64,000 nt of DNA from a virus (taxonomy: Duplodnaviria > Heunggongvirae > Uroviricota > Caudoviricetes): the IMG/VR virus record IMGVR_UViG_3300028591_000093, positions 16,765-80,764 of that record; one strand, given 5' to 3'. Positions 13,857 to 63,612 of the stretch are shown one piece after another (positions within the stretch are counted from its first letter, which is position 1; each line of letters begins with the position of its first letter). The position numbers and the translations under genes were made by a program. The notes beneath the pieces were generated by a model. It was not told the DNA's origin. It ran no database searches and saw only the letters and a program-made list of their open reading frames with translations.

Positions 13857-13872
13857 ATATTGTATAATTTAG

Positions 13873-13959
13873 TCGCCCCTGAGGGACTCGAACCCTCACT
13901 TCTTCCAACAGAAGGACATGGTTTTAGAGACCAGCACACTACCATTATGTTAAGGGGCA
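13873..13959 (-). tRNA. suppressor tRNA, anticodon CTA (reads UAG), type II with long variable arm, discriminator A
   Basis: Acceptor TGCCCCT/AGGGGCG, D-arm ACAT-AATGGTA-GTGT, anticodon arm CTGGT-CTCTAAA-ACCAT, variable arm CTTCT-GTTGGA-AGAAG, T-arm GAGGG-TTCGAGT-CCCTC. Confidence 0.7.
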
Positions 13960-16511: not shown

Positions 16512-16837
16512 TACTTTGTGGGTTTAATAGTTATTTCTGGAAGTACATTACCAGGAATACCAATATGTTTAAGTTTACTTAATTTATTGAGTCTATCTTT
16601 ATGATAATTATAAGCTTCTGGATTCTTTTTCTTATAAAAAGAATATGCTGTTTCATTACCTAAATCAATGTTTACAAGGTCTGGTGTAATTACAGTAGAT
16701 TCTGAACCAAGAGAACTTGTAAATGTATAATTCTTATCTTTACCTGTATTTGTAAGAGATGTGATTTGATAGCTCATTTTATTAGGATTATTTGATAACC
16801 ATTGATATATAATAGAGTTTACATCATATGGTGCCAA
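16511..16837 (-). CDS. hypothetical structural protein (108 aa)
   Basis: ORF track. TAATG overlap with the downstream gene. Confidence 0.4.
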   Translation of the reverse strand: MAPYDVNSIIYQWLSNNPNKMSYQITSLTNTGKDKNYTFTSSLGSESTVITPDLVNIDLGNETAYSFYKKKNPEAYNYHKDRLNKLSKLKHIGIPGNVLPEITIKPTK

Positions 16838-21734: not shown

Positions 21735-21804
21735 AGTATATTAGCTCAGTTGGTAGAGCACTACAGAGATGTAGCGGTCGGAGGTTCAAGTCCTTCATAT
21801 ACTC
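21735..21804 (+). ncRNA. tRNA-like RNA with canonical acceptor, D- and T-arms but a truncated anticodon arm (5-bp stem, 4-nt loop); pseudo-tRNA or Y-RNA-like
   Basis: AGTATAT/ATATACT acceptor, GCTC-AGTTGGTA-GAGC, CTACA-GAGA-TGTAG, GGAGG-TTCAAGT-CCTTC. Only 70 nt long. Confidence 0.45.
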
Positions 21805-21888
21805 CTTTGGTGAGAGTGGGGTTAGACTCACAAACAAAACAGATATGTGCTCACAGAATCTATATTACTAAAAAGTATATAAACTACA

Positions 21889-30081: not shown

Positions 30082-30219
30082 GGGGAGATGGTGAAATTTT
30101 TGAACAACCTCTTATGTATTTCTTCCTGAAAGGGATTGTCAACATGAGAGTTACTTCTATGGTTATACACGCTTTTTATTGGAAAAAAGATTCTCCTGGT
30201 TCGAGTCCAGGTCTCCCCA
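30082..30219 (+). ncRNA. 138-nt tRNA-like RNA: perfect 7-bp acceptor GGGGAGA/TCTCCCC with discriminator A and canonical T-arm, but about 107 nt in place of the D and anticodon arms (Y-RNA-like or tRNA with a large insertion)
   Basis: CCTGG-TTCGAGT-CCAGG T-arm. Internal 8-bp helix CTCTTATG/CATGAGAG. Contains a copy of the GGATTGTCA-N7-AGTTACTTC motif. D-region lacks GG. Confidence 0.45.
30132..30156 (+). promoter_or_regulatory. copy of the conserved motif GG(T/A)TGTCA-N6-7-(G/A)GTTACTTC
   Basis: One of four copies. This one lies inside the tRNA-like element. Confidence 0.3.
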
Positions 30220-30243: not shown

Positions 30244-30549
30244 ATGAGTAATTTGCTTGCTTGTATTGTAGTAATTCTTCTTATAATCTTCTTTATAGGA
30301 ATAATTGTACTACAAGTTCATGAAAAAGTTAAGAATTTCCCACAAAGTATTTATGAGGTAATTACCCCATTACATACTGGGATTCTTCTAGTTATCTGTG
30401 CCATATTTTCTGGTTTAATGGGTCTATTATTTGACTATAATTGCCATGATTTTTGGGCAGAATTCTTGTTGTTGATAGCTTTAGTAGTTATCTGGGATTT
30501 TATTGTGAAATGTATTGCTTGGTTAATCTGTAAAATTAAATACAAATGA
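30244..30549 (+). CDS. membrane protein
   Basis: ORF track. Multiple TM helices. Confidence 0.4.
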   Translation: MSNLLACIVVILLIIFFIGIIVLQVHEKVKNFPQSIYEVITPLHTGILLVICAIFSGLMGLLFDYNCHDFWAEFLLLIALVVIWDFIVKCIAWLICKIKYK

Positions 30550-33018: not shown

Positions 33019-33092
33019 GACCCAGTAGCTCAGTTGGATAGAGCAACAGCCTTCTAAGCTGTGGGTCGAGTGTTCGAGTCACTCCTGGGCCA
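33019..33092 (+). tRNA. tRNA-Arg(TCT)
   Basis: Acceptor GACCCAG/CTGGGCC (one A-C mismatch), D-arm GCTC-AGTTGGATA-GAGC, anticodon arm ACAGC-CTTCTAA-GCTGT, T-arm GAGTG-TTCGAGT-CACTC. Confidence 0.75.
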
Positions 33093-33109
33093 CATAAAAC
33101 AAAAACAAT

Positions 33110-34013: not shown

Positions 34014-34087
34014 GTTTTATTAGCTCATTTGGTAGAGCACAAAAATTGGTAATTTTGGGGTACCTTGTTCAACTCAAGGATGAAACT
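34014..34087 (+). tRNA. tRNA-Thr(GGT)
   Basis: Acceptor GTTTTAT/ATGAAAC, D-arm GCTC-ATTTGGTA-GAGC, anticodon loop region ATTGGTAA, T-arm CCTTG-TTCAACT-CAAGG. Confidence 0.65.
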
Positions 34088-34132: not shown

Positions 34133-34156
34133 GGTTGTCAAATATGGAGTTACTTC
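34133..34156 (+). promoter_or_regulatory. conserved motif GGTTGTCA-AATATG-GAGTTACTTC overlapping the tRNA-Arg(CCT) 5' end
   Basis: Motif copy. Confidence 0.35.
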
Positions 34157-34226
34157 TTTTAGCTCAGCTGGATAGAGCATTTGCCTCCTAAGCAAAGTGT
34201 CGGTGGTTCAATTCCACTAAAGAAAT
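34153..34226 (+). tRNA. tRNA-Arg(CCT)
   Basis: D-arm GCTC-AGCTGGATA-GAGC, anticodon arm TTTGC-CTCCTAA-GCAAA, T-arm GGTGG-TTCAATT-CCACT. First acceptor pair is mismatched. Confidence 0.65.
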
Positions 34227-34267
34227 CCTTAAACACTCTATATTATTTCTCCTGCTTTTCCCATAGG

Positions 34268-34290
34268 GGATGTCAGTGTAAAGTTACTTC
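34268..34290 (+). promoter_or_regulatory. conserved motif GGATGTCA-GTGTAA-AGTTACTTC, about 108 nt upstream of the tmRNA
   Basis: Motif copy. Confidence 0.3.
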
Positions 34291-34397
34291 TATAATTAGC
34301 GTCATGGTTTGCCAATAACTGAAAAATACTTTGCTCTTTTTCTCCCCTTTTTACAATAGGAGAGGGTGGAGTTAATACCTCATCCTCTTTCTTATTA

Positions 34398-34771
34398 GGG
34401 CCTATTTGGTTTTGACAGCATTATATGATTAATGGGAACATGCAAAGAGAGTACTGCTCTAAATTACGGTACAAAAAATAAATGCTAGCAGAAGAAGACC
34501 TGTTAGATTGGTTGCCTAAGCTTAGGCTTACTTAACTGTAAACTAGCTTATTATGGCATAACCTGGGTAATTATACCTGGAAACAGAAAATAATTGACAT
34601 TGTGGAAAGACACATTTAACTTTCTTCAAAGTATAAATGAAGTGGTGGAGTGGCTAGTTGCCAAACCAATTAGCCCCTGTGGGTAAAGTAACCACATTAA
34701 AAAGAACTAAGCATGTAAAGTTTCCTATTAGTTGATATTGTTGGACCTGGGTTCGACTCCCAGTAGGTCCA
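34398..34771 (+). ncRNA. ssrA: tmRNA (SsrA), about 374 nt. Predicted tag reading frame GCT AGC AGA AGA AGA CCT GTT AGA TTG GTT GCC TAA, giving (A)SRRRPVRLVA
   Basis: 5' GGGCCTA pairs with 3' TAGGTCC plus discriminator A next to the T-arm CTGGG-TTCGACT-CCCAG. The segment AACTAAGCATGTA matches the conserved E. coli tmRNA segment CUAAGCAUGUAG. Resume codon lies at nt 87, preceded by AAAAAATAAAT as in E. coli AAAAAAUAGUC. Confidence 0.6.
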
Positions 34772-35307
34772 CTGGTCCTTGAGGTTTTTGTTTCTCTGTT
34801 AGTTTTTCTACGATTTTTCCTAGCAGAGTTTTTGTTTTTCCTCAAGAGTAGGTCTCTCCATCCCTATATAAAAAAGATGGTATCTATATAGACATAAGTC
34901 CACAATTAAGGAGGTCATTGTAGTGATACAGAATAGGCAAAAGCTATTTGTCAGAGAGCCTTGCTCACTAGGTTAAGACAAACTACATAATAAGCTAGAA
35001 TAAAAGTATGGAGACTCAGAGCACCTAGTATGGCAGTCTATAACCATAGGTATTTATATACTTTATTTTACTGTGTTTGGGCAAACACTTGAAACGGCAT
35101 CCTAGTTTGGAGGTTTAAAAGTTAAAACCTTCTGCGAGCATAGGCATCCCTTCACTGGGAAAGTTATGCTCAACATCTGGTGTTAAGTAGCACCTAAAAT
35201 ATACTTCTTATGTGATTCAATGGTTAATATTGTGTTTTTGTTTGCGCGGTGACTCTAGGCAAGATGGGTTGTGAAACTAGTCTTGCCACCTTCTTTTTCT
35301 AAAGTTT

Positions 35308-36519
35308 ATGAAAAATGTAAAAATATATGCAAAAACAGTTGAAGATGAGGCAATGTTACAAATTCAAAACATGTCTTTATCTGATGCTTATGGAGAATGT
35401 CCTGTAAGAATAATGCCTGATTGTCATGCAGGTGCAGGATGTACAATTGGTACTGTAATAGGTATTAAAGATAGAGTTGTACCTAATACAGTTGGAGTAG
35501 ATATAGGATGTGGAATGTTGGTTGTTCCTTTAGGTAATATTGAGATTGATTTAGCAGCTCTAGATAATTTCATTAAAACTGAAATACCTTCTGGATTCAA
35601 TATCAATGAACAGTTTCTTGGTAAAAGTTTTTATCATCCTAGTACACTTACTCAATTTAAATGTCAAGAAGTTATAGATGCTGATATGGCTTTAAAGTCT
35701 ATTGGTAGTCTTGGAGGAGGTAATCATTTTATTGAAGTTGATATAAATGAAAATGATGAAAAATTTCTTGTAATTCATACTGGTAGTAGAAATCTTGGTG
35801 TAAGAGTATGTAAGTATTATCAAGAAAAAGCTATAAAGAGTTGTAAAGCAAAGAGAACTGATTTTATAGAAATTATTAACAGTCTTAAAGAACAAGGAAG
35901 ACAGTCTGAAATCAATGCTACTCTTGCACAAATTAAAGCAACTCAATCACCTTTCAATGCTGAATTGGCATATCTTGAAGGTAAAGACCTTGAGGATTAT
36001 CTTAATGATATGAGATTATGTCAAGGATATGCTTCTTGTAATAGAAGAGCAATTGCTATTAGAATTCTTGATTTCTTAGGACTTTCTAATCTTCTTTCTG
36101 ATTTCTTAGAAGGACATGATAAATCTTTTACAACTATTCATAATTATATTGATTTACCACATAAGATTCTTAGAAAAGGTGCTGTGAGTGCACTTAATGG
36201 AGAAAAGCTTATTATTCCTATTAACATGAGAGATGGTTCTCTTATCTGTATAGGTAAAGGTAATCTTGATTGGTTGTATTCTGCACCTCATGGAGCAGGT
36301 AGACTTATGTCTAGAAAGAAAGCAAAAGAAAGTCTTAAAGAAGAGGACTTTATTGAAGCAATGAAAGGTATTTATACAACTACAGCAACTAAAGATACTA
36401 TTGATGAAGCACCTATGGTATATAAACCGATGGATGAAATCATGGAGTGTATCAAAGATACTGTAGATGTTGTAGATATTATTAAACCTATATATAATTT
36501 TAAAGCAGCAGAGCAATGA
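35308..36519 (+). CDS. rtcB: RtcB-family RNA 3'-phosphate/2',3'-cyclic phosphate ligase
   Basis: 403 aa. RIMPDCHAGAGCTIG and VGVDIGCGM match the RtcB metal-binding motifs. Confidence 0.75.
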   Translation: MKNVKIYAKTVEDEAMLQIQNMSLSDAYGECPVRIMPDCHAGAGCTIGTVIGIKDRVVPNTVGVDIGCGMLVVPLGNIEIDLAALDNFIKTEIPSGFNINEQFLGKSFYHPSTLTQFKCQEVIDADMALKSIGSLGGGNHFIEVDINENDEKFLVIHTGSRNLGVRVCKYYQEKAIKSCKAKRTDFIEIINSLKEQGRQSEINATLAQIKATQSPFNAELAYLEGKDLEDYLNDMRLCQGYASCNRRAIAIRILDFLGLSNLLSDFLEGHDKSFTTIHNYIDLPHKILRKGAVSALNGEKLIIPINMRDGSLICIGKGNLDWLYSAPHGAGRLMSRKKAKESLKEEDFIEAMKGIYTTTATKDTIDEAPMVYKPMDEIMECIKDTVDVVDIIKPIYNFKAAEQ

Positions 36520-36968
36520 TAAATAATCAAATTGATAAACTTATCATGGAGGCTATGAAGTCTCATGAGAATGTAAGAAAAGAGGCTTTAAGAGCAATTA
36601 AAGCTGCTTTCTTATTATGGAGAACTCAGAAAGAAAATGTTAATAAACCATTTACTGATGAAGTAGAAATTCAAATCATCAAGAAAATGGTAAAACAAAG
36701 AGAGGATTCTATTGAGCAATTTAAACAGGCTAATAGAATGGATTTAGTTGAGGCAGAAGAAGCACAACTTAAAGTTCTTAAAGAGTTTTTACCAGTAGAA
36801 GCAACTAGGGAAGACATTTTGAAATGTTTCAATGATGTAATTGGACAAGATGGTTTTGAGCCTGTAAAGAAGAACATGGGTGTCATTATCAAAACAATAA
36901 AAGGTTCACTTCCTAATGCTGATGGCAAATTAGTTGCAGAAGTTGTACAAGAATTTTTAAACAAATGA
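36516..36968 (+). CDS. GatB/YqeY-domain protein
   Basis: 150 aa. NVRKEALRAIKAAFLL and overall size and pattern match YqeY. ATGA overlap with rtcB. Confidence 0.5.
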   Translation: MINNQIDKLIMEAMKSHENVRKEALRAIKAAFLLWRTQKENVNKPFTDEVEIQIIKKMVKQREDSIEQFKQANRMDLVEAEEAQLKVLKEFLPVEATREDILKCFNDVIGQDGFEPVKKNMGVIIKTIKGSLPNADGKLVAEVVQEFLNK

Positions 36969-39551: not shown

Positions 39552-40397
39552 ATGAAATATAGGTTTTTAGCTAAAGAAACAACTGAAGCTCTTATAAAGT
39601 ATTTACAATCTTGGTTTGAACAAAATGGACCAGGATGTAATGCTGTAATAGGTATATCAGGAGGTAAAGACTCTACTATTGCAGCAGCACTCTGTGTAAA
39701 AGCTTTAGGTGCTGAAAGAGTCATAGGTGTATTGTTGCCAAATGGTGTTCAACATGATTTCAATATAGCACAGAAAGTGTGTGAAACTCTTGGAATCAAG
39801 AACCTGTCTATTCCTATTGGGACTATCTTTGAAGAATTCCAGGATAGATATAAGATGGCAAATGTACACAATACTCTTAATGAAGTAACTGAGCAAGCAA
39901 GAATTAACTTAGCTCCTAGAATTAGGATGACTATGTTAAGATATGTAGCACAAGCAAATAATGGCAGATTGATTAACACTTCTAACTTATCTGAAGACTG
40001 GGTTGGTTATGCAACTGTTGATGGAGATAGTGCAGGAGATGTATCACCATTATGTATGCTTACTGTACAAGAAGTAAAAGCTATTGGACATGAACTTGGA
40101 CTTCCTGCTGAACTTGTTGAGAAAGTTCCTGAAGATGGACTTGTTGGTACATCTGATGAACAAACACTTGGAATCACTTACAAAGATATAGACACCTATA
40201 TCAGAGAAGGTGAAGGAAGTGCTGAAGTAATTGAAAAGATTAACAAAAAGTTTGAAGCAAACAAGTTCAAGATTTATAGAATGGCAAGTATGCCTTGCTT
40301 CTGGCCTGAAATTGAAATGTTGTTTGACTTAACTGAAAAGCCTACCAATGTAGAGATAATGTCTCTAGGTATGGCTAAAGACCCAAGATTCCAATGA
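39552..40397 (+). CDS. nadE: NH3-dependent NAD+ synthetase
   Basis: 281 aa. VIGISGGKDSTIAAAL gives the PP-loop SGGxDS. Overall NadE pattern. Confidence 0.7.
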   Translation: MKYRFLAKETTEALIKYLQSWFEQNGPGCNAVIGISGGKDSTIAAALCVKALGAERVIGVLLPNGVQHDFNIAQKVCETLGIKNLSIPIGTIFEEFQDRYKMANVHNTLNEVTEQARINLAPRIRMTMLRYVAQANNGRLINTSNLSEDWVGYATVDGDSAGDVSPLCMLTVQEVKAIGHELGLPAELVEKVPEDGLVGTSDEQTLGITYKDIDTYIREGEGSAEVIEKINKKFEANKFKIYRMASMPCFWPEIEMLFDLTEKPTNVEIMSLGMAKDPRFQ

Positions 40398-40945
40398 GAA
40401 AGGTTCTTATTTTGATTGATTGTCAAAATGATTTCTGTGCACAAGGTGGTGTTTTGGCAAATAAAGAGTCTATTGCAATTGCAAAAGACATTGCTAAAAC
40501 ATTACCTGAGCTTATTTCTGAAAAAGGTTTTGACTATATTCTTGCTACAAGAGATACTCATTATAGGCAATCTTATGATGTCACAGTAGAAGGTAAACAT
40601 TTACCTGTTTTACATTGTATATGTGAAACTGCTGGTTGGTGTCTAAGAGATGATATTATGGAAGCTCTTGACAATTGTCAAGTTCCTAAAAAGTTTATAA
40701 ACAAACATACATTTGGTTATAACAATTGGGAACAAATAATTGGTTCAGATAAGTCAGAAATAAGAGAGTTCTATTTAGTAGGATTCTGTACTGATATTTG
40801 TGTTGTTACCAATGCTCTTGTTCTCAAGACATTATACCCTAATTCAGAAGTGTATGTCTATGAAGGACTGACAGCAGGTGTAACTCCTGAAAAGAAAGAG
40901 GCAGCTATTGAGACAATGAGAAGCTGCCACATAAACATTATTTGA
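40394..40945 (+). CDS. pncA: nicotinamidase/pyrazinamidase (isochorismatase fold)
   Basis: LILIDCQNDF (Asp), GFCTDICV (catalytic Cys), 183 aa. ATGA overlap with nadE. Confidence 0.65.
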   Translation: MRKVLILIDCQNDFCAQGGVLANKESIAIAKDIAKTLPELISEKGFDYILATRDTHYRQSYDVTVEGKHLPVLHCICETAGWCLRDDIMEALDNCQVPKKFINKHTFGYNNWEQIIGSDKSEIREFYLVGFCTDICVVTNALVLKTLYPNSEVYVYEGLTAGVTPEKKEAAIETMRSCHINII

Positions 40946-41020
40946 TATGGACAATATTGTTGAGATGGCAAGTTTTATTGCAGGTGTAACAGTTGGTTTC
41001 GCTTCAATGTTTCTTTTCTT

Positions 41021-41230
41021 ATGAGTGAAAATGCTAAAACAAATATAACTATAAGTTTCAATCTTCCACTTATTTTAACAATTGCTTTCTTTATTGCTAA
41101 GGTGACAGAGAAAATTGATTGGAATTGGTGGTGGGTATTTAGTCCTTTGTGGATTACTGGAACTTTAGTTGTTTTAATGTTTATAATCTACATAATTATT
41201 CAATGCTTTTCGTCAACAAAATACCTGTAA
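41021..41230 (+). CDS. small membrane protein (69 aa)
   Basis: ORF track. Two TM helices. Confidence 0.35.
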   Translation: MSENAKTNITISFNLPLILTIAFFIAKVTEKIDWNWWWVFSPLWITGTLVVLMFIIYIIIQCFSSTKYL

Positions 41231-42033
41231 AGGTAGAACATTTCCAGGATGGTACTCAAAAGATAAATATGCCAGATTTTGGTGTAAATGCTTTTCATAT
41301 AGTATGGAAGTATCATTGTGATGAAGAATTAGTCACATTGATATTTGTTTGTGGTTATCTCAGAGATAATTATCAAGACTGTACTATATCTCTGGAAATG
41401 TTGTATGTTCCTAATGCTAGAATGGACAGAGTAGAAGAAAGAGGAGATGTCTTTACCCTTAAGTATTTCTGCAATGTTATTAACAGTTTACAGTTTGAAA
41501 GTGTAACAGTTTTTGATACTCATTCAAAAGTAACTGATGCTCTAGTTGATAGGATGTGTAAAATACCAACTGATGTATCATTGAAAGAAGCCCTTGATGT
41601 TATACATAGTGGGATGTTTGATGATAAATTCAGTAAGGTTACAATTGTATTTCCTGATAGAGGTGCTTATGATAGATACAGTTCTCTTGAAATCTTAAAG
41701 CCTTTTAGAAAGGTAATAGGAAACAAATCAAGAGACTGGAAAACTGGCACTTTGCAAGACCAGGAGCTATATGGAGTAGATACATTGGAGACAGGTATTC
41801 CTGTTCTGATTATTGATGACATATTATCCTCAGGTGGTACCATCTGTAAGACTATTGCAAATATCAGGGAAAAAGTGAATTGTCCAATTTATGTATATGC
41901 TTCCCACTGTGAGAATAAACTTATAGAAGATAATACAGAGAATTGGCAATACATTCTAAGTAATGTAACAAAATTGTTTACAACAAATGGGATATATTCT
42001 CATGAAATTGAAAAGGTTGTGATATTATGGTAG
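41203..42033 (+). CDS. prs: ribose-phosphate pyrophosphokinase (PRPP synthetase)
   Basis: FQDGTQKINM, YVPNARMDRVEERG (compare Prs YARQDRK), VFDTHS (compare DLHA) and PRPP-binding VLIIDDILSSGGTICK. Start taken at the internal ATG 41203. Confidence 0.6.
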   Translation: MLFVNKIPVKVEHFQDGTQKINMPDFGVNAFHIVWKYHCDEELVTLIFVCGYLRDNYQDCTISLEMLYVPNARMDRVEERGDVFTLKYFCNVINSLQFESVTVFDTHSKVTDALVDRMCKIPTDVSLKEALDVIHSGMFDDKFSKVTIVFPDRGAYDRYSSLEILKPFRKVIGNKSRDWKTGTLQDQELYGVDTLETGIPVLIIDDILSSGGTICKTIANIREKVNCPIYVYASHCENKLIEDNTENWQYILSNVTKLFTTNGIYSHEIEKVVILW

Positions 42034-43208
42034 CAATAAACCCTGCAAGTATGTTGGATAATGACCTCTATAAGTTTAGCATGAGCTATGCTTATATGAA
42101 GTTATTTCCTGAAGCAGAGGGTACATTTGTTTTCTGTGATAGAGGTAAAACAGAGTATACTGCTAAATTTGTAACCGCTTTGCAACAAGAGTTACATAGA
42201 CTGGCAGAAAGAATGTTGTCTAATGCAGAGAGACAATGGTGTGTACAAAACATACCATACATTCCTGAGTGGTATTGGGAATGGTTAGAGTCTTTCTATT
42301 TTAATCCAAACTTAATTAAACTTTCCCTTGAGAAAGATGGTGAGTTGAAGATTGAAGTTACAGATAAACTTTATAAAGTTACTCTGTATGAGGTACCTAT
42401 TCTCTATACAGTTGCAGAAACATACTATAAAATCTATGGTAAATCTCTAACTGTTGACCAGTATCAAGAGATATGTAGAAAAACTGAAGAGAAATGTAAG
42501 ATTGCTGAAGAAGCAGGATTTAAATTCTCTGAGTTTGGTACCAGAAGAAGATATAGTTATGAAGTACAAGATACAGTTGTAGCTGTTTGTAAGAACTCTA
42601 CATCCTGCGTCGGTACTTCAAATGTACATCTTGCAATGAAATATGACATGAAACCTATTGGAACTGTAGCACATGAATGGGTAATGTTTCATGGTGCTAT
42701 GTATGGTTACAATGAGGCTAACTACATGGCATATAAAAACTGGGTAAAGGTTTATGATGGCAATCTTGGTATTGCTTTAACTGATACCTATACTTCTAAA
42801 GTCTTTTTCAAGAATTTTTCTTTACAACATGCAAAATTGTTTGATGGTATAAGACAAGATTCTGGAGATGAGAAAGACTTTGTTGAGAGAGCACTAGTTA
42901 GATATGATGAGTTAGGTATCAACCCACTCACAAAAACTATAGTGTTCTCTAATGCTTTGGATTTTCCAAAAGCTGCTCAAATTGCTGAATACTGTAAAGG
43001 AAAGATAAAAGCTTCCTTTGGTATAGGCACTAATCTTACCAATGATATTGAAGGTGTACAGCCTAGAAATATTGTCATGAAGTTAATGCATTGCAGAATG
43101 AACCCAAGACAAGAATGGGTAAATTGTGTAAAGATTTCTGATGACATTGGTAAAGTAATGGGAGCAGATGAGGAAGTAAAAACTGCTATTTATAAATTAG
43201 GTCTATGA
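42027..43208 (+). CDS. pncB: nicotinate phosphoribosyltransferase
   Basis: 393 aa. N-terminal LDNDLYKFSM and EFGTRRR signature of PncB. Confidence 0.65.
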   Translation: MVAINPASMLDNDLYKFSMSYAYMKLFPEAEGTFVFCDRGKTEYTAKFVTALQQELHRLAERMLSNAERQWCVQNIPYIPEWYWEWLESFYFNPNLIKLSLEKDGELKIEVTDKLYKVTLYEVPILYTVAETYYKIYGKSLTVDQYQEICRKTEEKCKIAEEAGFKFSEFGTRRRYSYEVQDTVVAVCKNSTSCVGTSNVHLAMKYDMKPIGTVAHEWVMFHGAMYGYNEANYMAYKNWVKVYDGNLGIALTDTYTSKVFFKNFSLQHAKLFDGIRQDSGDEKDFVERALVRYDELGINPLTKTIVFSNALDFPKAAQIAEYCKGKIKASFGIGTNLTNDIEGVQPRNIVMKLMHCRMNPRQEWVNCVKISDDIGKVMGADEEVKTAIYKLGL

Positions 43209-43681
43209 GAAATTTTCCAGTAGAACATGAAGGAAAAACCTACTGGATAAGTAGGTCTGTAGCAGTTGCAGGTTTCATCTTCACCAAAGATAGTCAAGGA
43301 AATTGGTTAGTTCTTGCAAATAAGAGAGGACCAGGTTGTCCTGATAATGTTGGTAAATGGGTTTGTCCTTGTGGATACCTAGATTATGATGAAACCCTCA
43401 AAACAGCTATTATAAGAGAAGTTTATGAGGAAACAGGAGTTCTTGTACCTGCTGATAAACTTCAATTTGCAGGTATAGATGATGTACCTGAAGGTAGACA
43501 AAACTTAACAGTAAAATTTACTGCATATCTTGGTTCTGATTCACCTGCTGTGAAGATGTTATCTAAAGAGCATTGTGAACCAGATGAGGTAGATGAAGTT
43601 ATGTGGATACCAGTAGCTAAAGCAGGTGAGTATGATTGGGCTTTTGGACATTATGAACTAATTAGGAGTTTTGTACCATGA
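43205..43681 (+). CDS. Nudix hydrolase (ADP-ribose/NADH pyrophosphatase-like)
   Basis: Nudix box GYLDYDETLKTAIIREVYEETGV. ATGA overlap. Confidence 0.65.
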   Translation: MRNFPVEHEGKTYWISRSVAVAGFIFTKDSQGNWLVLANKRGPGCPDNVGKWVCPCGYLDYDETLKTAIIREVYEETGVLVPADKLQFAGIDDVPEGRQNLTVKFTAYLGSDSPAVKMLSKEHCEPDEVDEVMWIPVAKAGEYDWAFGHYELIRSFVP

Positions 43682-44265
43682 ACCCAAAAGTAGCTCATCT
43701 ATTTCTTACAGACAAGTGCACTAATCAGTGTCCTATGTGCTGTAACAACAACTACACTGTAGACAGTATTCCTTTTATAACAAAAGAGGAGTTGTCTACA
43801 GTGGAAACTGTTTGTTTAACAGGTGGTGAACCTTTTCTTCTAGATAATCTTTATGGGATTGTAAATGTAATAAGTTCTTTTGCTAAGAATATCTATGTTT
43901 ATACTTCAGGTTATGAGTTACTCTATTACTTGAAAAAACATACCTTACCTTGTATAACTGGAATTTCCATTTGTCCAAAAGGTAAAAAAGATTGGGATGC
44001 ATTACAAGAACTTATACACAATACAAGAGCTAGATTGAGGATTTCAGAATGTAGTAATAGACTATATGTTCTTTTAAAACAAGAAGATAGAGCTAACTAT
44101 GTTACTGAAACTGATATTAGTTTGAGGGCAATTGAACATTTTGCTGAAGAGTTAAATGCTAAGATATTGTTCAGAACTTGGCTTCCTGAAATTACATCTC
44201 CAGATGGAGAGATATTTAGAAGAGTTAATTTAGAGGATTTAAAACAATGGAAATCAGAACTATAA
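43678..44265 (+). CDS. small radical SAM protein (QueE/NrdG-size)
   Basis: CTNQCPMC Cx3Cx2C motif and LTGGEPFL SAM motif. 195 aa. ATGA overlap. Confidence 0.5.
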   Translation: MNPKVAHLFLTDKCTNQCPMCCNNNYTVDSIPFITKEELSTVETVCLTGGEPFLLDNLYGIVNVISSFAKNIYVYTSGYELLYYLKKHTLPCITGISICPKGKKDWDALQELIHNTRARLRISECSNRLYVLLKQEDRANYVTETDISLRAIEHFAEELNAKILFRTWLPEITSPDGEIFRRVNLEDLKQWKSEL

Positions 44266-44879
44266 GAGGAAGAGCTGTCTTATATGGAGGTTCTTTCAAT
44301 CCTATACATAATGGACATATAGAAGCAATACAAATGCTCTTAGATAGAAGAGATACCAATGGTATGTACTATTATAATAAGGTAATTGTAGCTCCAAGCT
44401 TTGCAAGTCCTTTTAAGGAGTTTAATGTGTGTTTTGCAGACAGATTTGAAATGGCTGCAACTTCTATAAAAAGAGTAATAGGAGATGAAAGAGTAGAAGT
44501 CATCTTTGATAGTAATGCATCGCCATTATTTCAATATACTTACTATTTCCTAAAGCATCTATCTCTTAAGTATTCTGATTATTCCATTGATTTAGCTATA
44601 GGTGCAGATTGTCTTGCACAAATAACTAAATGGGCATGTTTTAAAGACATACTTTATCAGTTTGATATTGTAGTAATACCTAGAGAAGGAGTTGAAATGA
44701 AAGTTCCTGAGGGATTAACTCTAGCTAGAAGTATTACTAAAATGTCAGAAATTCCTTCTAATATAAGTTCAACCTATATCAGACAATGTATTGATGAGTG
44801 TAATCCAGAATGGAAAACACTTGTTCCTAAATATGTTGCTGATTATATTCAAAAACATCATCTATATGACTGTAGTTAA
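44247..44879 (+). CDS. nadD: nicotinate-nucleotide adenylyltransferase
   Basis: YGGSFNPIHNGH (HxGH nucleotidyltransferase motif) and C-terminal ISSTYIR (NadD ISSTxIR motif). 210 aa. Confidence 0.7.
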   Translation: MEIRTIRGRAVLYGGSFNPIHNGHIEAIQMLLDRRDTNGMYYYNKVIVAPSFASPFKEFNVCFADRFEMAATSIKRVIGDERVEVIFDSNASPLFQYTYYFLKHLSLKYSDYSIDLAIGADCLAQITKWACFKDILYQFDIVVIPREGVEMKVPEGLTLARSITKMSEIPSNISSTYIRQCIDECNPEWKTLVPKYVADYIQKHHLYDCS

Positions 44880-45372
44880 TCGGACAGGAAATCTATTAGA
44901 TTCAGAAGCACAGATAATCATGCACCAAGTAAATGATGCTGGTGTAATGGGGAGTGGAGTTGCTGCTGCTATTGCACACAAGTGGCCTTATGTACAAGAA
45001 CAATACACTGTTCTTATGCAACAAGGTGGCCTTAAACTAGGTGTTGTACAGGTTGTTGAGCATGAACAATGTGTAGAAGGACAGGAAGAACCAAACTATC
45101 CTTACATTGCAAATTTGTGTGCTCAAGACTTATACCAAAAAGAGCATTCTTTCTTGAGTATAGGATGTCCTACAAGTTATGATGCTTTGTGGATGTGCCT
45201 AGTTAAATTGGCAAAAATCTGTGAAGAAAACAAAATAAGAACAATTGCAATGCCTTATCTCATGAGTTCTTGTAGAGGTGGTGCTAACTGGAATGTAGTA
45301 CATTCTATGGTTCTAGCAGCATTTGAAAACCTTGATATTACTATTGAGATTTGGCAGTTGCCAAAAGAATAG
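44866..45372 (+). CDS. macro-domain protein (ADP-ribose binding or hydrolysing)
   Basis: IMHQVNDAGVMGSGVAAAIAHKWP resembles the macro-domain NAANxxLxGGGGVxGAI motif. Start at the internal ATG 44866 just before the nadD stop. Confidence 0.55.
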   Translation: MTVVNRTGNLLDSEAQIIMHQVNDAGVMGSGVAAAIAHKWPYVQEQYTVLMQQGGLKLGVVQVVEHEQCVEGQEEPNYPYIANLCAQDLYQKEHSFLSIGCPTSYDALWMCLVKLAKICEENKIRTIAMPYLMSSCRGGANWNVVHSMVLAAFENLDITIEIWQLPKE

Positions 45373-52194: not shown

Positions 52195-52404
52195 ATGAAA
52201 ACTTTATTTGAAATTTTACCAGATTTTCTTAATGGTAAGAAAATTCGTAGAGTATCTTGGAATCAAAATCTTTGGCTTGAAACTACAGATGGTACATTAA
52301 CTAGGTTAATGATTAAAGAAGATTCTGGTATTAGACTGTTACATATAGGTGAAGGATTTTCTCTTGATGATGTTAAAGCAAAAGATTGGGAAATAGTACA
52401 ATAA
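52195..52404 (+). CDS. hypothetical protein (69 aa)
   Basis: ORF track. Confidence 0.35.
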   Translation: MKTLFEILPDFLNGKKIRRVSWNQNLWLETTDGTLTRLMIKEDSGIRLLHIGEGFSLDDVKAKDWEIVQ

Positions 52405-61995: not shown

Positions 61996-63612
61996 ATGTC
62001 AAGATTTAGCAAAATGAATGTAGGAGTTCTTGCTACTACTAAAGTACAAGCTCCTAACACTGTTAATAGACAAGGACATGCTGCTTATGCATTAGGAGAT
62101 GAGTTAAAACTTTTATCAGCACTGAATGTTCTCAAGTTAGAACAACAGTACTATAGAGGTGTTAACCAACAAATGCTAGAAGTTATTGAACTTGTTGAAA
62201 AAGTGGCAAGGAAAGACCCTTATTTGGCTGCACAATGTATTGTGTATTCTAGATGGGAGGGAGAAGGTTTAAGAAGTGTAAATCATTTAGCAGCAGCCGC
62301 ATTGGCTGATTACATTGCTGGAAGAGAATGGGCTAAGAGATTTTACAGTTCTTATGATAAAAAGAACAAGAGAGGTGGATGTATATGTAGACCTGATGAT
62401 ATGTCTGAGATTAAGATGATTTATTTCGCTATGAATGCTCCTCATAAACTCAGTATGGCAATGAAGAAAGGTTTCAAGAACTATATTGAAGCATTGTCAC
62501 CATATCAGATGTTTAAATATAAAAAGCCTGTTATTGATATATCTAACTTAGTACATCCAAATCCTAATGTTACAGAAGACATTGAGGCTGAAGGTAGAAG
62601 AGTTAAGTCATTAACTGCTCTCATGACTGGTATGCATGTTGCTGCTAATACATGGGAGACTAGACAGTCTGCTGCTGGACAAGAAATAGCAGAACAAGTA
62701 AAAAGAGGTGAAATATCTGCACAAGAGGCTGAGTTGGCTCTTGACCAGGCTAAGAGTGAAAACTGGAATGACATGTTGATGAACAATCAACTTGGTATTC
62801 TTGCTGCTCTTAGAAACATAAGAAACATTCTCAAGACTGCTAACATCAATTCTATCAAGAAACTTTGTGGAATGTTAGAAGATGCTAAAAGAATCAGAGA
62901 AGGTAATATTATGCCACAACAGATAGATGTAGCCTATGACATTGTTATGGATGAATTTGCAAGTACTCAGACTGGTAAATTGATAGCTGCTTCCTTGATA
63001 AAAGGATATGAACTGTCTACTACTAATCTTGGTCCTGCATTGCCAGGTAGAAATTTGGTTATCTTAGATTGCTCAGGCTCTATGGGTTGGAGTAATGTAT
63101 ATGACCTTAGAAAGAAATCTGCTGGTAGAAATACAGTTCTGGATAAAGCATCACTTGTAGCTGCTACTATTTTAAAAGCAACTGGTGGTGATTTAATTGT
63201 ATTTGGTAGTGGTGCAAGAGAAGGTACCTATAATCCTATGCAAAATGTATTTGAGATTGCAAGAAGTCTCAGAAATACCAGCATGGGTGGTACTAACTTA
63301 GCTTCTGCTTTTGATTTAGTAGCTAAGAATTGGAACAATATCAAGTATAACAGAATTTTCATTCTTTCTGACAATGAATGCAATCAGGGTAGTAATGTAC
63401 AAGCTTATAAGAGATTACTGTCTAAATGTAGTGCAGATGAAATGCCTTACATTTACTCAGTAGATATGGCTGCATATGGTACTACTCCTATTAAACATGA
63501 TGGTAGAGTTAACTACTATTATGGCTTTGGATATGCAATGTTTGATGATGTAGCTAAACTGGAGTTCAATCCACAAGCTCACATTGAAAAAGTTAAACAG
63601 ATTGTCATTTAA
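61996..63612 (+). CDS. rsr: Ro60-like ribonucleoprotein (TROVE domain plus C-terminal vWA domain)
   Basis: 538 aa. N-terminal NRQGHAAYALGDELKLLSAL...YYRGVN...DPYLAAQCIVYSRWEGE fits the TROVE pattern. C-terminal LVILDCSGSM gives the vWA MIDAS DxSxS motif. Confidence 0.6.
   Translation: MSRFSKMNVGVLATTKVQAPNTVNRQGHAAYALGDELKLLSALNVLKLEQQYYRGVNQQMLEVIELVEKVARKDPYLAAQCIVYSRWEGEGLRSVNHLAAAALADYIAGREWAKRFYSSYDKKNKRGGCICRPDDMSEIKMIYFAMNAPHKLSMAMKKGFKNYIEALSPYQMFKYKKPVIDISNLVHPNPNVTEDIEAEGRRVKSLTALMTGMHVAANTWETRQSAAGQEIAEQVKRGEISAQEAELALDQAKSENWNDMLMNNQLGILAALRNIRNILKTANINSIKKLCGMLEDAKRIREGNIMPQQIDVAYDIVMDEFASTQTGKLIAASLIKGYELSTTNLGPALPGRNLVILDCSGSMGWSNVYDLRKKSAGRNTVLDKASLVAATILKATGGDLIVFGSGAREGTYNPMQNVFEIARSLRNTSMGGTNLASAFDLVAKNWNNIKYNRIFILSDNECNQGSNVQAYKRLLSKCSADEMPYIYSVDMAAYGTTPIKHDGRVNYYYGFGYAMFDDVAKLEFNPQAHIEKVKQIVI

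Follow-up and report, generated by a model that had tools for sequence, protein, structure and literature searches.

Why a large phage should bring its own ribosome-rescue RNA is a question on which the literature only speculates, and it is raised here by a transfer-messenger RNA (tmRNA, ssrA) gene in a virus of the class Caudoviricetes. The gene occupies positions 34398–34772 (+) of the window, by which we mean the whole 64,000-nt stretch of DNA analyzed (IMG/VR record IMGVR_UViG_3300028591_000093, positions 16,765–80,764). Phage tmRNAs are well known, and a large, tRNA-rich phage with a tmRNA is, taken alone, no surprise; the unusual point of this one is a conserved tag peptide rich in arginine. 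Our analysis confirmed that the locus is a real, full-length, one-piece, phage-encoded tmRNA. Apart from PK2 (the second pseudoknot) and an encoded CCA end, the sequence and structure elements of a tmRNA are present and are kept by compensatory substitutions within a small phage clade. We consider it quite likely that the RNA works as a standard one-piece tmRNA of a ~169-kb, tRNA-rich phage that reads TAG as glutamine.

ARAGORN called a one-piece tmRNA of 375 nt at these coordinates, with the predicted tag ASRRRPVRLVA* encoded by gene positions 87–122. The Rfam tmRNA model RF00023 matched 34398–34774 over its full length (model positions 1–374) with 93.2 bits (E = 5.2e-35), twice the gathering score of 47 bits, and gave 86.9 bits for a relative described below (L195). 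According to both programs the gene order is standard and not that of a two-piece (circularly permuted) tmRNA. The gene is of full length, with the 5′ acceptor strand, the first pseudoknot (PK1) and the tag frame present, unlike an attP-type 3′ fragment of ssrA, and no intron interrupts its T-loop. The initial annotation, made from the sequence alone, had placed a 374-nt tmRNA here with the right coordinates, its end at 34771 being the discriminator A, one position short of the ARAGORN end (34772); it had also singled out an internal segment as conserved, and this segment, CUAAGCAUGUAA, agrees with the conserved tmRNA block at 11 of 12 bases. The minimum free energy (MFE) of the 375-nt RNA is −106.3 kcal/mol, compared with −85.4 ± 5.2 kcal/mol in dinucleotide shuffles (z = −4.03, with 0 of 100 shuffles equally stable). 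Unconstrained MFE folding recovered the acceptor stem, the T arm and the long helix H2. The base composition (38% G+C) is in line with the phage, as is the use of AGA for arginine.

The tRNA-like end proposed earlier, an acceptor GGGCCUA/UAGGUCC plus A and a T arm, can be read directly from the sequence. The 5′ acceptor strand GGGCCUA (34398–34404, +) pairs with UAGGUCC (34764–34770), followed by the discriminator A at 34771, and all 7/7 pairs are invariant in the four family members (the window gene and the relatives L195, L196 and L199). The third pair is a G3:U70 wobble (34400:34768), the alanine-identity pair for alanyl-tRNA synthetase (AlaRS). It is found in 4/4 family members and in 27/27 sequences when crAss-like phage relatives are included. 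The T arm (34747–34763, +), aligned by Rfam with high posterior probability, has the stem CUGGG/CCCAG and the 7-nt loop UUCGACU; the first pair of this stem goes from C-G to A-U in L195/L196, a compensatory change. The 5′ strand of H2 (34416–34443, +; gene 19–46) pairs with 34711–34743 (gene 314–346), which holds the conserved GCAUGU block. H2 has 25 pairs, six of them changed on both sides between lineages and two broken in L195/L196; the alignment with crAss-like tmRNAs adds further compensatory changes, the window sequence being the likely source of single both-sides changes at six H2 pairs. Helix H5 (34514–34527, +), identified by reading the sequence, is the hairpin GCCUA-AGCU-UAGGC around the UAA stop of the tag, and its five pairs do not vary in the family.

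Covariation was assessed by drawing a curated structure with pseudoknots on a four-sequence alignment (A3; window, L195, L196 and L199) and counting pairs, with pair partners slid by 1–3 columns as the control. Standard pairs filled 97.4% of the cells on the curated structure, compared with 36–44% in the slid controls, and 11 pairs had changed on both sides yet still paired (0–3 in the controls). These double changes lie in H2 (six), stem 1 of PK3 (two), hairpins c and d of PK4 (one each) and the T stem (one). Variation is zero across the four sequences in the acceptor stem (G3:U included), both stems of PK1, and H5. When the window gene was folded with 26 crAss-like phage tmRNAs in RNAalifold, the acceptor, T arm and H2 were again recovered.

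For the pseudoknots, the outcome was divided. Of the architecture PK1–PK4 named in the initial annotation, PK1, PK3 and PK4 gained support (PK1 by comparison with shuffles, PK3 and PK4 by covariation), whereas PK2 was not demonstrable. The outcomes named there as refuting a tmRNA, an insignificant covariance-model score and a lack of the pseudoknot architecture, were not observed. PK1 (34446–34472, +) consists of stem S1 AGAG/CUCU (gene 49–52/60–63) and stem S2 GUACUG/CGGUAC (gene 54–59/70–75). In a single-sequence search for H-type knots it was matched in stability by only 1 of 300 shuffles, and it alone was supported there, PK2, PK3 and PK4 being no better than shuffles. Because its stems do not vary, PK1 shows no covariation; family substitutions in this region are confined to loop 3. 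PK3 (34601–34624, +) combines S1 UGUG/CACA (gene 204–207/214–217) with S2 GAAAG/CUUUC (gene 208–212/223–227). Two S1 pairs change from G-C to A-U on both sides, with a G-U intermediate in L199, and S2 is conserved apart from one pair broken in L195/L196. The PK4 region (34646–34696, +) has a layout common to crAss-like phage tmRNAs: stem b, UGG/CCA (gene 249–251/264–266), pairs into the loop of the 9-bp hairpin c (gene 255–263/270–278), which shows changes on both sides, and hairpin d, UGUGG/CCACA (gene 281–285/295–299), shows a U-A to A-U swap. The PK2 region (34536–34586, +) reads as two nested helices, CUGU/ACAG (gene 139–142/186–189) around the hairpin 166–172/177–183, with conserved pairs and just one one-sided change. 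Two early drawings, neither of them preserved in the relatives, were dropped: a PK3 stem GGAAAG/CUUUCU, in place of which covariation favors UGUG/CACA, and a PK4 stem GUGG/CCAC (gene 245–248/295–298), in place of which it favors the hairpin 281–285/295–299.

The tag frame lies at 34484–34519 (+) and reads GCU AGC AGA AGA AGA CCU GUU AGA UUG GUU GCC UAA, that is, ASRRRPVRLVA and a stop. An mRNA-like part starting about 87 nt from the 5′ end after a run of A had been predicted; the resume codon GCU is indeed at gene position 87, directly behind the A-rich AAAAAAUAAAU, and the Rfam alignment places it on the consensus resume codon at high posterior probability. Ahead of it stand U(−5) and A(−4), whose counterparts in E. 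coli are U85 and A86, and the UAA stop sits inside the H5 hairpin. An alternative frame from GCA at gene position 91 (AEEDLLDWLPKLRLT) was rejected, having no hydrophobic end and no A at −4, a stop outside H5 and no agreement with the Rfam alignment.

Comparison with the relatives shows that the clade conserves one tag frame, A[S/D]RR(R)PVRL[A/V]A, with UAA as its stop. The tags are ASRRRPVRLAA in L199 and ADRRPVRLAA in L195, and the differences amount to AGC to GAC, the loss of exactly one AGA codon, and GUU to GCU. The frame is thus kept with an in-frame indel of one codon, and the arginine run is therefore a clade trait. The LVA ending is a one-base variant of the canonical LAA, which the 98.4%-identical relative has, and is not special; LAA and LVA are both fast-degrading ssrA endings in E. 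coli, as seen with GFP-ssrA variants. The description of the tag as unusually arginine-rich and ending in LVA holds within a sample of 45 unique tags from 86 IMG/VR phage tmRNA loci, a sample biased by the search patterns: the arginine fraction is 0.36 for the window tag and at most 0.14 among the sampled tags, and its net charge is +4, with a charge of at least +4 in just one of the 45. All four arginine codons of the tag are AGA, which accounts for 479 of the 579 arginine codons in the open reading frames (ORFs) of the window. We regard AGA in the tag, and the matching tRNA-Arg(UCU) 1.3 kb upstream, as ordinary codon usage.

Blastn against the GenBank phage collection gave no match to the window tmRNA or to its close relative, exact 3′-end and H5 patterns had zero matches in IMG/VR, and in exact-pattern scans of IMG/VR the closest matches were two other families of phage tmRNAs. 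The 5′ 19-mer GGGCCTATTTGGTTTTGAC retrieved only an unrelated phage family with the tag GENVNSPAYEYAIAA (L110, L164, L165, L167 and L169), which shares with the window gene its first 19 nt (tRNA-like domain) alone; two further matches, in bacterial genomes, were attributed to chance. That family, comprising L110 and the metagenome contigs L164, L165, L167 and L169, belongs to tRNA-rich phages with the tag GENV[N/Y]SPAYEYAIAA; its L167 member is 465 nt long with repeated hairpin units, and its L164 locus has a tRNA(CUA) within 6 kb.

The three relatives were instead reached through neighboring proteins, namely a homolog of the upstream 215-aa ORF and RtcB fragments. L199 is 98.4% and L195 82% identical to the window tmRNA, and L196, after removal of a 240-nt group I intron, matches L195 at 99.7% identity. 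The order tRNA-Thr, second tRNA, tmRNA and RtcB is kept in L195 and L199, and the 2.6-kb contig L196 keeps it up to the tmRNA. Using RtcB as a guide in IMG/VR, 80 loci were kept at 57–60% identity, and no tmRNA was found in the 40 scanned (L001–L040); with the neighboring SPFH protein as a guide, one 380-kb relative was found, with no tmRNA within 8 kb. Five samples carry the window tmRNA and flanks with 100% identity, an observation that, taken alone, is uninformative about selection. Judged by the changes between its relatives, the tmRNA is under purifying selection on the phage genome.

The intron of L196 (positions 1964–2203 of Logan SRR18336227_57023) matches RF00028 with 87.7 bits (E = 2e-21). 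It splits the T-loop between GGGUU and CGACUCC, after the second T-loop U, with a U at −1, a terminal G and P1 pairing. In L198 (1–1340; Logan SRR34413441_4132) the 3′ half of the tmRNA T-loop (CGACTCCCAGTAGGTCCAC) is the precise point where homology to the window starts, and upstream lies unrelated AT-rich DNA with two small minus-strand ORFs, up to the contig end; either this T-loop site holds a larger insertion or the gene has lost its 5′ part. The RtcB gene is split into 150 + 266 aa by an insert in L198 (1331–3434) and L199 (4698–6801), the latter encoding a LAGLIDADG-type ORF, and is intact in the window (35308–36519). Of the tRNAs between tRNA-Thr and the tmRNA in L195 (1097–1173) and L196 (1376–1452), one has the anticodon CUU (Lys) and the other CCU (Arg); the pair is otherwise identical, a single anticodon base differing between near-identical strains.

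The tmRNA gene lies on a phage genome. A large terminase ORF is located at 100–1722 (−) (phrog_6681, 5e-55) and a portal gene just past the window start (phrog_6547, 5e-31). The window sequence is part of a 169,149-bp ENA contig, ERZ27256846 k141_4368301, with a 141-nt overlap between its two ends (inside window positions 52258–52398), so the genome is a circular assembly of ~169 kb. The terminase itself is split, with ORFs at 100–1722 (−) and 2024–2356 (−) matching positions 227–740 and 76–173 of the same PHROG profile; the two pieces are ~300 nt apart in different frames, maybe separated by an intron or another intervening element, and Rfam returned no intron there.

The recoding proposed in the initial annotation proved real, and its traces are a suppressor tRNA and late genes, a short way past the window start, in which TAG alternates with CAG. 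Two loci cover these genes: L202 is the same genome, starting 141 nt before window position 1, and L203 carries the same genes in a related strain. There is one in-frame TAG in the portal gene (L202 11863–14058) and there are two in a 1,237-codon tail-fibre-like gene (L202 15606–19319), with zero in-frame TAA or TGA in the recoded late genes. L203 has three more TAGs, all at CAG positions of the window phage. Since the strain-variable TAG positions all alternate between CAG and TAG, TAG is very probably read as glutamine in late genes. The tRNA with anticodon CUA, a TAG suppressor of 88 nt with a long extra arm, is encoded at 13872–13959 (−) (ARAGORN; RF00005, 51.2 bits). Inside the window recoding is not visible: the ORF statistics are not decisive, and TAG ends 5 of 77 ORFs.

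The RNA-repair neighborhood suggested for the locus is also present. An RtcB RNA ligase gene (35308–36519, +; Pfam PF01139, 1.5e-62) lies 536 nt downstream of the tmRNA, followed by a YqeY/GatB-like gene (36516–36968, +; PF09424, 1e-29). Other neighbors are an SPFH protein and, downstream, a radical-SAM protein and a full NAD-salvage set. This salvage and repair set (39552–45372, +) comprises NAD synthase, an isochorismatase-type nicotinamidase, a phosphoribosyltransferase, a nicotinate phosphoribosyltransferase, NUDIX, a nucleotidyltransferase and a Macro domain, with CinA and NADAR further on (L204); it fits phage NAD+ reconstitution against NAD-depleting defence. A Ro60-like protein with weak TROVE and vWA matches is encoded at 61996–63612 (+), downstream of tRNA-His and tRNA-Pro, and Rfam found no Y-RNA family near it even at E ≤ 1. 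A gene of the ClpP family (L204 20079–20606; Pfam, 3.3e-28), located about 8.3 kb beyond the end of the window, keeps the Ser/His/Asp motifs. As a partner that degrades tagged proteins it was not counted as support, its best PHROG match being a head-maturation protease.

The tmRNA, one of the 23 RNA genes that ARAGORN called in the window, belongs to an RNA island that extends upstream. The initial annotation had described this island as three tRNAs and the tmRNA with a shared upstream motif; the tRNAs exist and the motif abuts two of them, but the nearest copy is 107 nt from the tmRNA, and an incomplete match that immediately precedes the tmRNA (GGAGTTAATAC) lacks significance. The tRNAs are tRNA-Arg(UCU), which reads AGA (33019–33093, +; ARAGORN; RF00005, 63.9 bits), tRNA-Thr(GGU) (34014–34087, +; ARAGORN) and tRNA-Arg(CCU) (34153–34228, +; ARAGORN; RF00005, 58.1 bits). 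The tRNA-Thr(GGU) has no Rfam tRNA match even at E ≤ 1; it is nevertheless conserved in L195, L196 and L199. Elsewhere in the window, a tRNA at 21735–21805 (+) has an abnormal 2-base anticodon in ARAGORN and an RF00005 score of 53.4 bits.

The motif, TGTCA-N7-8-RGTTACTTC, occurs four times in the window (at 30137, 33993, 34136 and 34271, all +), compared with 0.03 expected. Two copies reach or overlap the 5′ end of a tRNA, the first island copy standing immediately before tRNA-Thr(GGU) and the second overlapping tRNA-Arg(CCU) by 4 nt, and the copy at 30137 precedes the ORF at 30244. The third island copy (34271–34290, +; TGTCA-N7-RGTTACTTC) is the one 107 nt upstream of the tmRNA. All three island copies hold their positions in L195, L196 and L199. 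We consider the motif a candidate phage promoter, at 34271 for the tmRNA precursor; it does not look sigma-70-like.

Between this motif and the gene, a strong GA-rich/CU-rich hairpin with a U-rich run (34355–34396, +) ends 1 nt before the tmRNA 5′ end. It is stable in all four relatives (−16 to −23 kcal/mol) and differs in sequence while its pairing is preserved, and it may be a leader structure, a terminator-like element or a processing element. Similar hairpins with U-rich runs stand before the tRNAs at 33019, 25740, 46190 and 48791. The 533-nt non-coding gap between the tmRNA and RtcB (34775–35307) has no significant overall structure (z = −1.6). It contains a long symmetric hairpin at its start and a strong hairpin with a U-run at ~35250–35300, and its identity to L198 is 98%. 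Neither this gap nor the surroundings of the Ro60-like gene gave a match to another RNA family with Rfam in E-value mode.

We hypothesize that the RNA acts as follows. A precursor would be transcribed, possibly from the conserved motif 107 nt upstream, and trimmed by RNase P and 3′ exonucleases; a CCA-adding enzyme would then complete the 3′ end, since only ...A-C is encoded. Host AlaRS would charge the tmRNA with alanine through G3:U70, and SmpB and EF-Tu, presumably those of the host, would deliver it to ribosomes at the 3′ ends of broken or stop-less mRNAs. Translation would resume on GCU, add ASRRRPVRLVA and end at UAA, which remains a stop in the TAG-recoded genome, and the ribosome would be recycled. 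The hydrophobic L-V-A or L-A-A end would mark the product for a host ClpXP, Lon or Tsp-type protease. The phage would probably gain additional capacity to rescue ribosomes at a time when mRNAs of host and phage are degraded or cleaved, and the tmRNA sits among other genes of translation and RNA maintenance (tRNAs, RtcB and YqeY).

Several observations weigh against this reading. The gene does not encode CCA: its 3′ end is encoded as ...UCC-A-C-U-G, the final C of the gene being the sole encoded CCA base. None of the tRNA genes called in the window encodes CCA either, and as CCA addition after transcription is normal in many lineages, its absence does not exclude the gene from the tmRNAs. The covariation comes from only two independent lineages, 82% identical, so each double change counts as a single event. 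In the PK2 region 266 of 300 shuffles were as good in the H-type search, and from gene position 123 to 300 the posterior probability of the Rfam alignment is low. PK2–PK4 are typical of tmRNAs but dispensable, variable among lineages and reduced in several, and we do not take the undemonstrated PK2 as weighing against tmRNA membership. The tag region is conserved at the nucleotide level along with its flanks, which makes selection on the peptide inseparable from selection on the RNA, and we know of no tested precedent for a degron with four arginines in 11 residues. The terminator-like hairpin right before the 5′ end complicates a simple precursor model. Finally, no SmpB was found in the ~84 of 169 kb examined: tblastn with E. 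coli SmpB gave a best E of 2 in the window and nothing in ~20 kb of flanks or the relatives' loci, and PF01668 was absent from the gene tables examined. The function of the phage tmRNA would consequently depend on its fit with host SmpB.

Could the gene instead serve the recoding, or have no role at all? The late genes read TAG as sense (one in the portal gene, two in the tail-fibre-like ORF, and three CAG/TAG variable positions), the phage has its own tRNA(CUA), and the tag stops at UAA; a tmRNA in such a genome might, as the initial annotation suggested, clear ribosomes stalled at late-gene TAGs when tRNA(CUA) is limiting or release factor 1 (RF1) is blocked. However, tmRNA-SmpB acts on ribosomes with an empty mRNA channel, so that ribosomes stalled at an internal TAG would become its substrate only after cleavage of the mRNA, and the gene is grouped with early/middle-type genes, 20 kb from the suppressor tRNA. 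An unrelated tRNA-rich phage, that of the L164 locus, likewise combines a tmRNA with a nearby tRNA(CUA), but a suppressor tRNA is close by in only 3 of the 86 sampled IMG/VR phage tmRNA loci. In recoded E. coli lacking RF1, ribosomes at unassigned UAG are resolved partly by tmRNA tagging, yet this action harmed UAG-containing viruses (PMC6207430), and in the window phage it would tag and destroy the phage's own late proteins. Most tmRNA-bearing phages are, moreover, without signs of recoding (PMC9004378), and we find a recoding role improbable. A passenger without a phage role, such as an ssrA taken up recently from a host, an attP-type fragment or a pseudogene in decay, is conceivable in that ssrA is an integration site and temperate phages often carry 3′ ssrA fragments (PMC9004378, PMC11915505); the 100% identity among five samples would fit it too, though that identity is uninformative on selection. 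The gene is full-length (model positions 1–374), has held its position between lineages that differ by 18%, where 11 pairs are compensatory and the tag frame is intact, and is phage-like in codons and composition (38% G+C, AGA for arginine). L196 even keeps its tmRNA splice-competent around the group I intron (U at −1, terminal G and P1 pairing). The passenger explanation is extremely unlikely and close to refuted.

Two further proposals concern what the RNA is for. Placed beside RtcB, it could be part of a module against RNA damage by host defence, in which RtcB reseals tRNAs, the tmRNA frees cut mRNAs of their ribosomes and translation goes on after attack by anticodon nucleases, mRNA interferases or Cas13-like systems. 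The tRNA-tmRNA-RtcB-YqeY order is conserved with RtcB 536 nt downstream, the next 9 kb hold NAD-salvage, NUDIX and Macro functions that fit anti-defence, and the Ro60-like gene lies at 61996–63612. What speaks for such a module is adjacency only, and the adjacency does not extend to the 40 other viral loci scanned with RtcB homologs or to the SPFH gene of the 380-kb relative, neither of which has a tmRNA nearby. We hold this role to be possible but doubtful; it would in any case be a special case of general ribosome rescue and not an alternative to it. The tag, for its part, might not serve degradation at all, the basic residues acting in localisation or in escape from host adaptors, or the RNA might compete with host tmRNA for SmpB. 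Its outlier composition (arginine 0.36 and charge +4, with a maximum arginine fraction of 0.14 in 45 tags) and the clade-conserved arginine run would suit this, and PMC11915505 cites a precedent for an inhibitor, the coding-less tmRNA-like RNA of mycobacteriophage DS6A. But the C-terminus is canonical LAA in two of the three tag variants and LVA in the window, tags of the crAss-like family ([G/D]NT(S)Y[R/K]VAA) normally have a basic residue at −4 as well, and, unlike in DS6A, the complete conserved frame, the resume-codon context and the in-helix stop favor real trans-translation. A tag or RNA of this kind is very improbable. Bolder still would be to regard the tag as functionally specialised in a small clade of ~170-kb TAG-to-Gln phages, for example for a particular protease (possibly the phage ClpP-family protein) or by tuning to tRNA-Arg(UCU), with the RNA, RtcB and the tRNAs forming a repair module for translation damage during code switching or RNA-cleaving defence; we give this little credence. 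General ribosome rescue by a standard tmRNA is the reading we prefer.

On that reading, the locus adds a structure-validated and well-supported lineage to the known phage tmRNAs. It also shows that stable maintenance is possible for a strongly basic tag, so that natural ssrA tags span a wider range than was known, and it provides an easy way of testing whether degradation depends on the body of the tag. A tmRNA beside RtcB and tRNAs in a phage reading TAG as glutamine is a reasonable candidate system in which to ask why large phages bring ribosome rescue. The points of modest interest are the basic tag, the TAG-recoded genome, the tRNA-tmRNA-RtcB arrangement and the intron-bearing relative.

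Set beside SsrA of E. coli (tag ANDENYALAA), the phage RNA shares G3:U70, the discriminator A, the T arm, H2 with the GCAUGU block, PK1, the A-rich leader, U(−5)/A(−4), the alanine resume codon, the stop inside H5 and, probably, further downstream knots. Its 10–11-residue tag and the hydrophobic L-[A/V]-A end are likewise those of a standard tmRNA. It differs in that the tag is strongly basic (four arginines and no acidic residue) instead of polar/acidic, in the 5′ region (UGGUUUUGAC instead of UGGAUUCGAC), and in being phage-encoded, with CCA not encoded, PK2 not demonstrable and no SmpB gene found alongside.

The nearest sequence family found is that of crAss-like Bacteroides phages, represented in IMG/VR by 26 unique tmRNA sequences whose tags read [G/D]NT(S)Y[R/K]VAA and exemplified by cr106_1 (MT774378) and Kehishuvirus 'tikkala', both annotated SsrA, and by cr128_1. 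Overall identity is ~49%, rising to 85% over gene positions 275–319 (PK4 to the 3′ strand of H2). Both families are phage-borne, lie near tRNA genes and share the PK4 layout, UGGUUUUGA in the tRNA-like domain and a basic residue at position −4 of the tag. In contrast, no protein similarity was seen in the loci compared, the genomes are ~95 kb versus 169 kb, the crAss-like tags are short and Bacteroidetes-like with a single basic residue, and the acceptor sequence and PK1 differ.

Published surveys place the gene in a wider setting. Roughly 2.3% of phage genomes carry a tmRNA, crAss-like phages among them. tmRNAs, two-piece forms included, were reported in 402 of 18,146 phage genomes (PMC9004378), and three in the first 30 mycobacteriophage genomes (PMC1475703). 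They are also known from Streptomyces BE-cluster phages (PMC5764925), Stenotrophomonas phage Marzo (PMC8928761) and the huge phages of Al-Shayeb 2020, some of which carry SmpB as well (PMC7162821). With mycobacteriophage cluster C, the BE cluster, Marzo, the huge phages, Melnitz and the pelagimyophages, the window phage shares a complete tmRNA in a large, tRNA-rich, lytic-type genome. For these phage tmRNAs no role is known to be experimentally proven (PMC1475703, PMC5764925, PMC8928761, PMC7162821, PMC9004378), and in the five reports we came across no description of an arginine-rich tag. Methylophage Melnitz and the pelagimyophages have their tmRNAs in two circularly permuted pieces, controlled by a glutamine riboswitch, whereas the window gene is one-piece.

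The intron of L196 has its counterparts in bacteria, where group I introns in the tmRNA T-loop are known from 883 sequences (PMC11915505). The likeness is the T-loop position; the difference is that L196 lies on a phage-type contig and not on a bacterial chromosome. If the loop is numbered as in that study, the L196 site is subsite 3, and introns at subsite 3 are reported only from the class Bacteroidia (PMC11915505). This subsite, the crAss-like relatives and the Prevotella or Bacteroidales labels of RtcB homologs are jointly a lead to a possible Bacteroidia host, not proof of one. At the other end of the range stands mycobacteriophage DS6A, whose tmRNA-like RNA is cited in PMC11915505 as having no tag frame and inhibiting host tmRNA. 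That RNA and the window gene are alike in being phage-encoded with a tRNA-like domain; the window gene, in contrast, has a complete and conserved tag frame.

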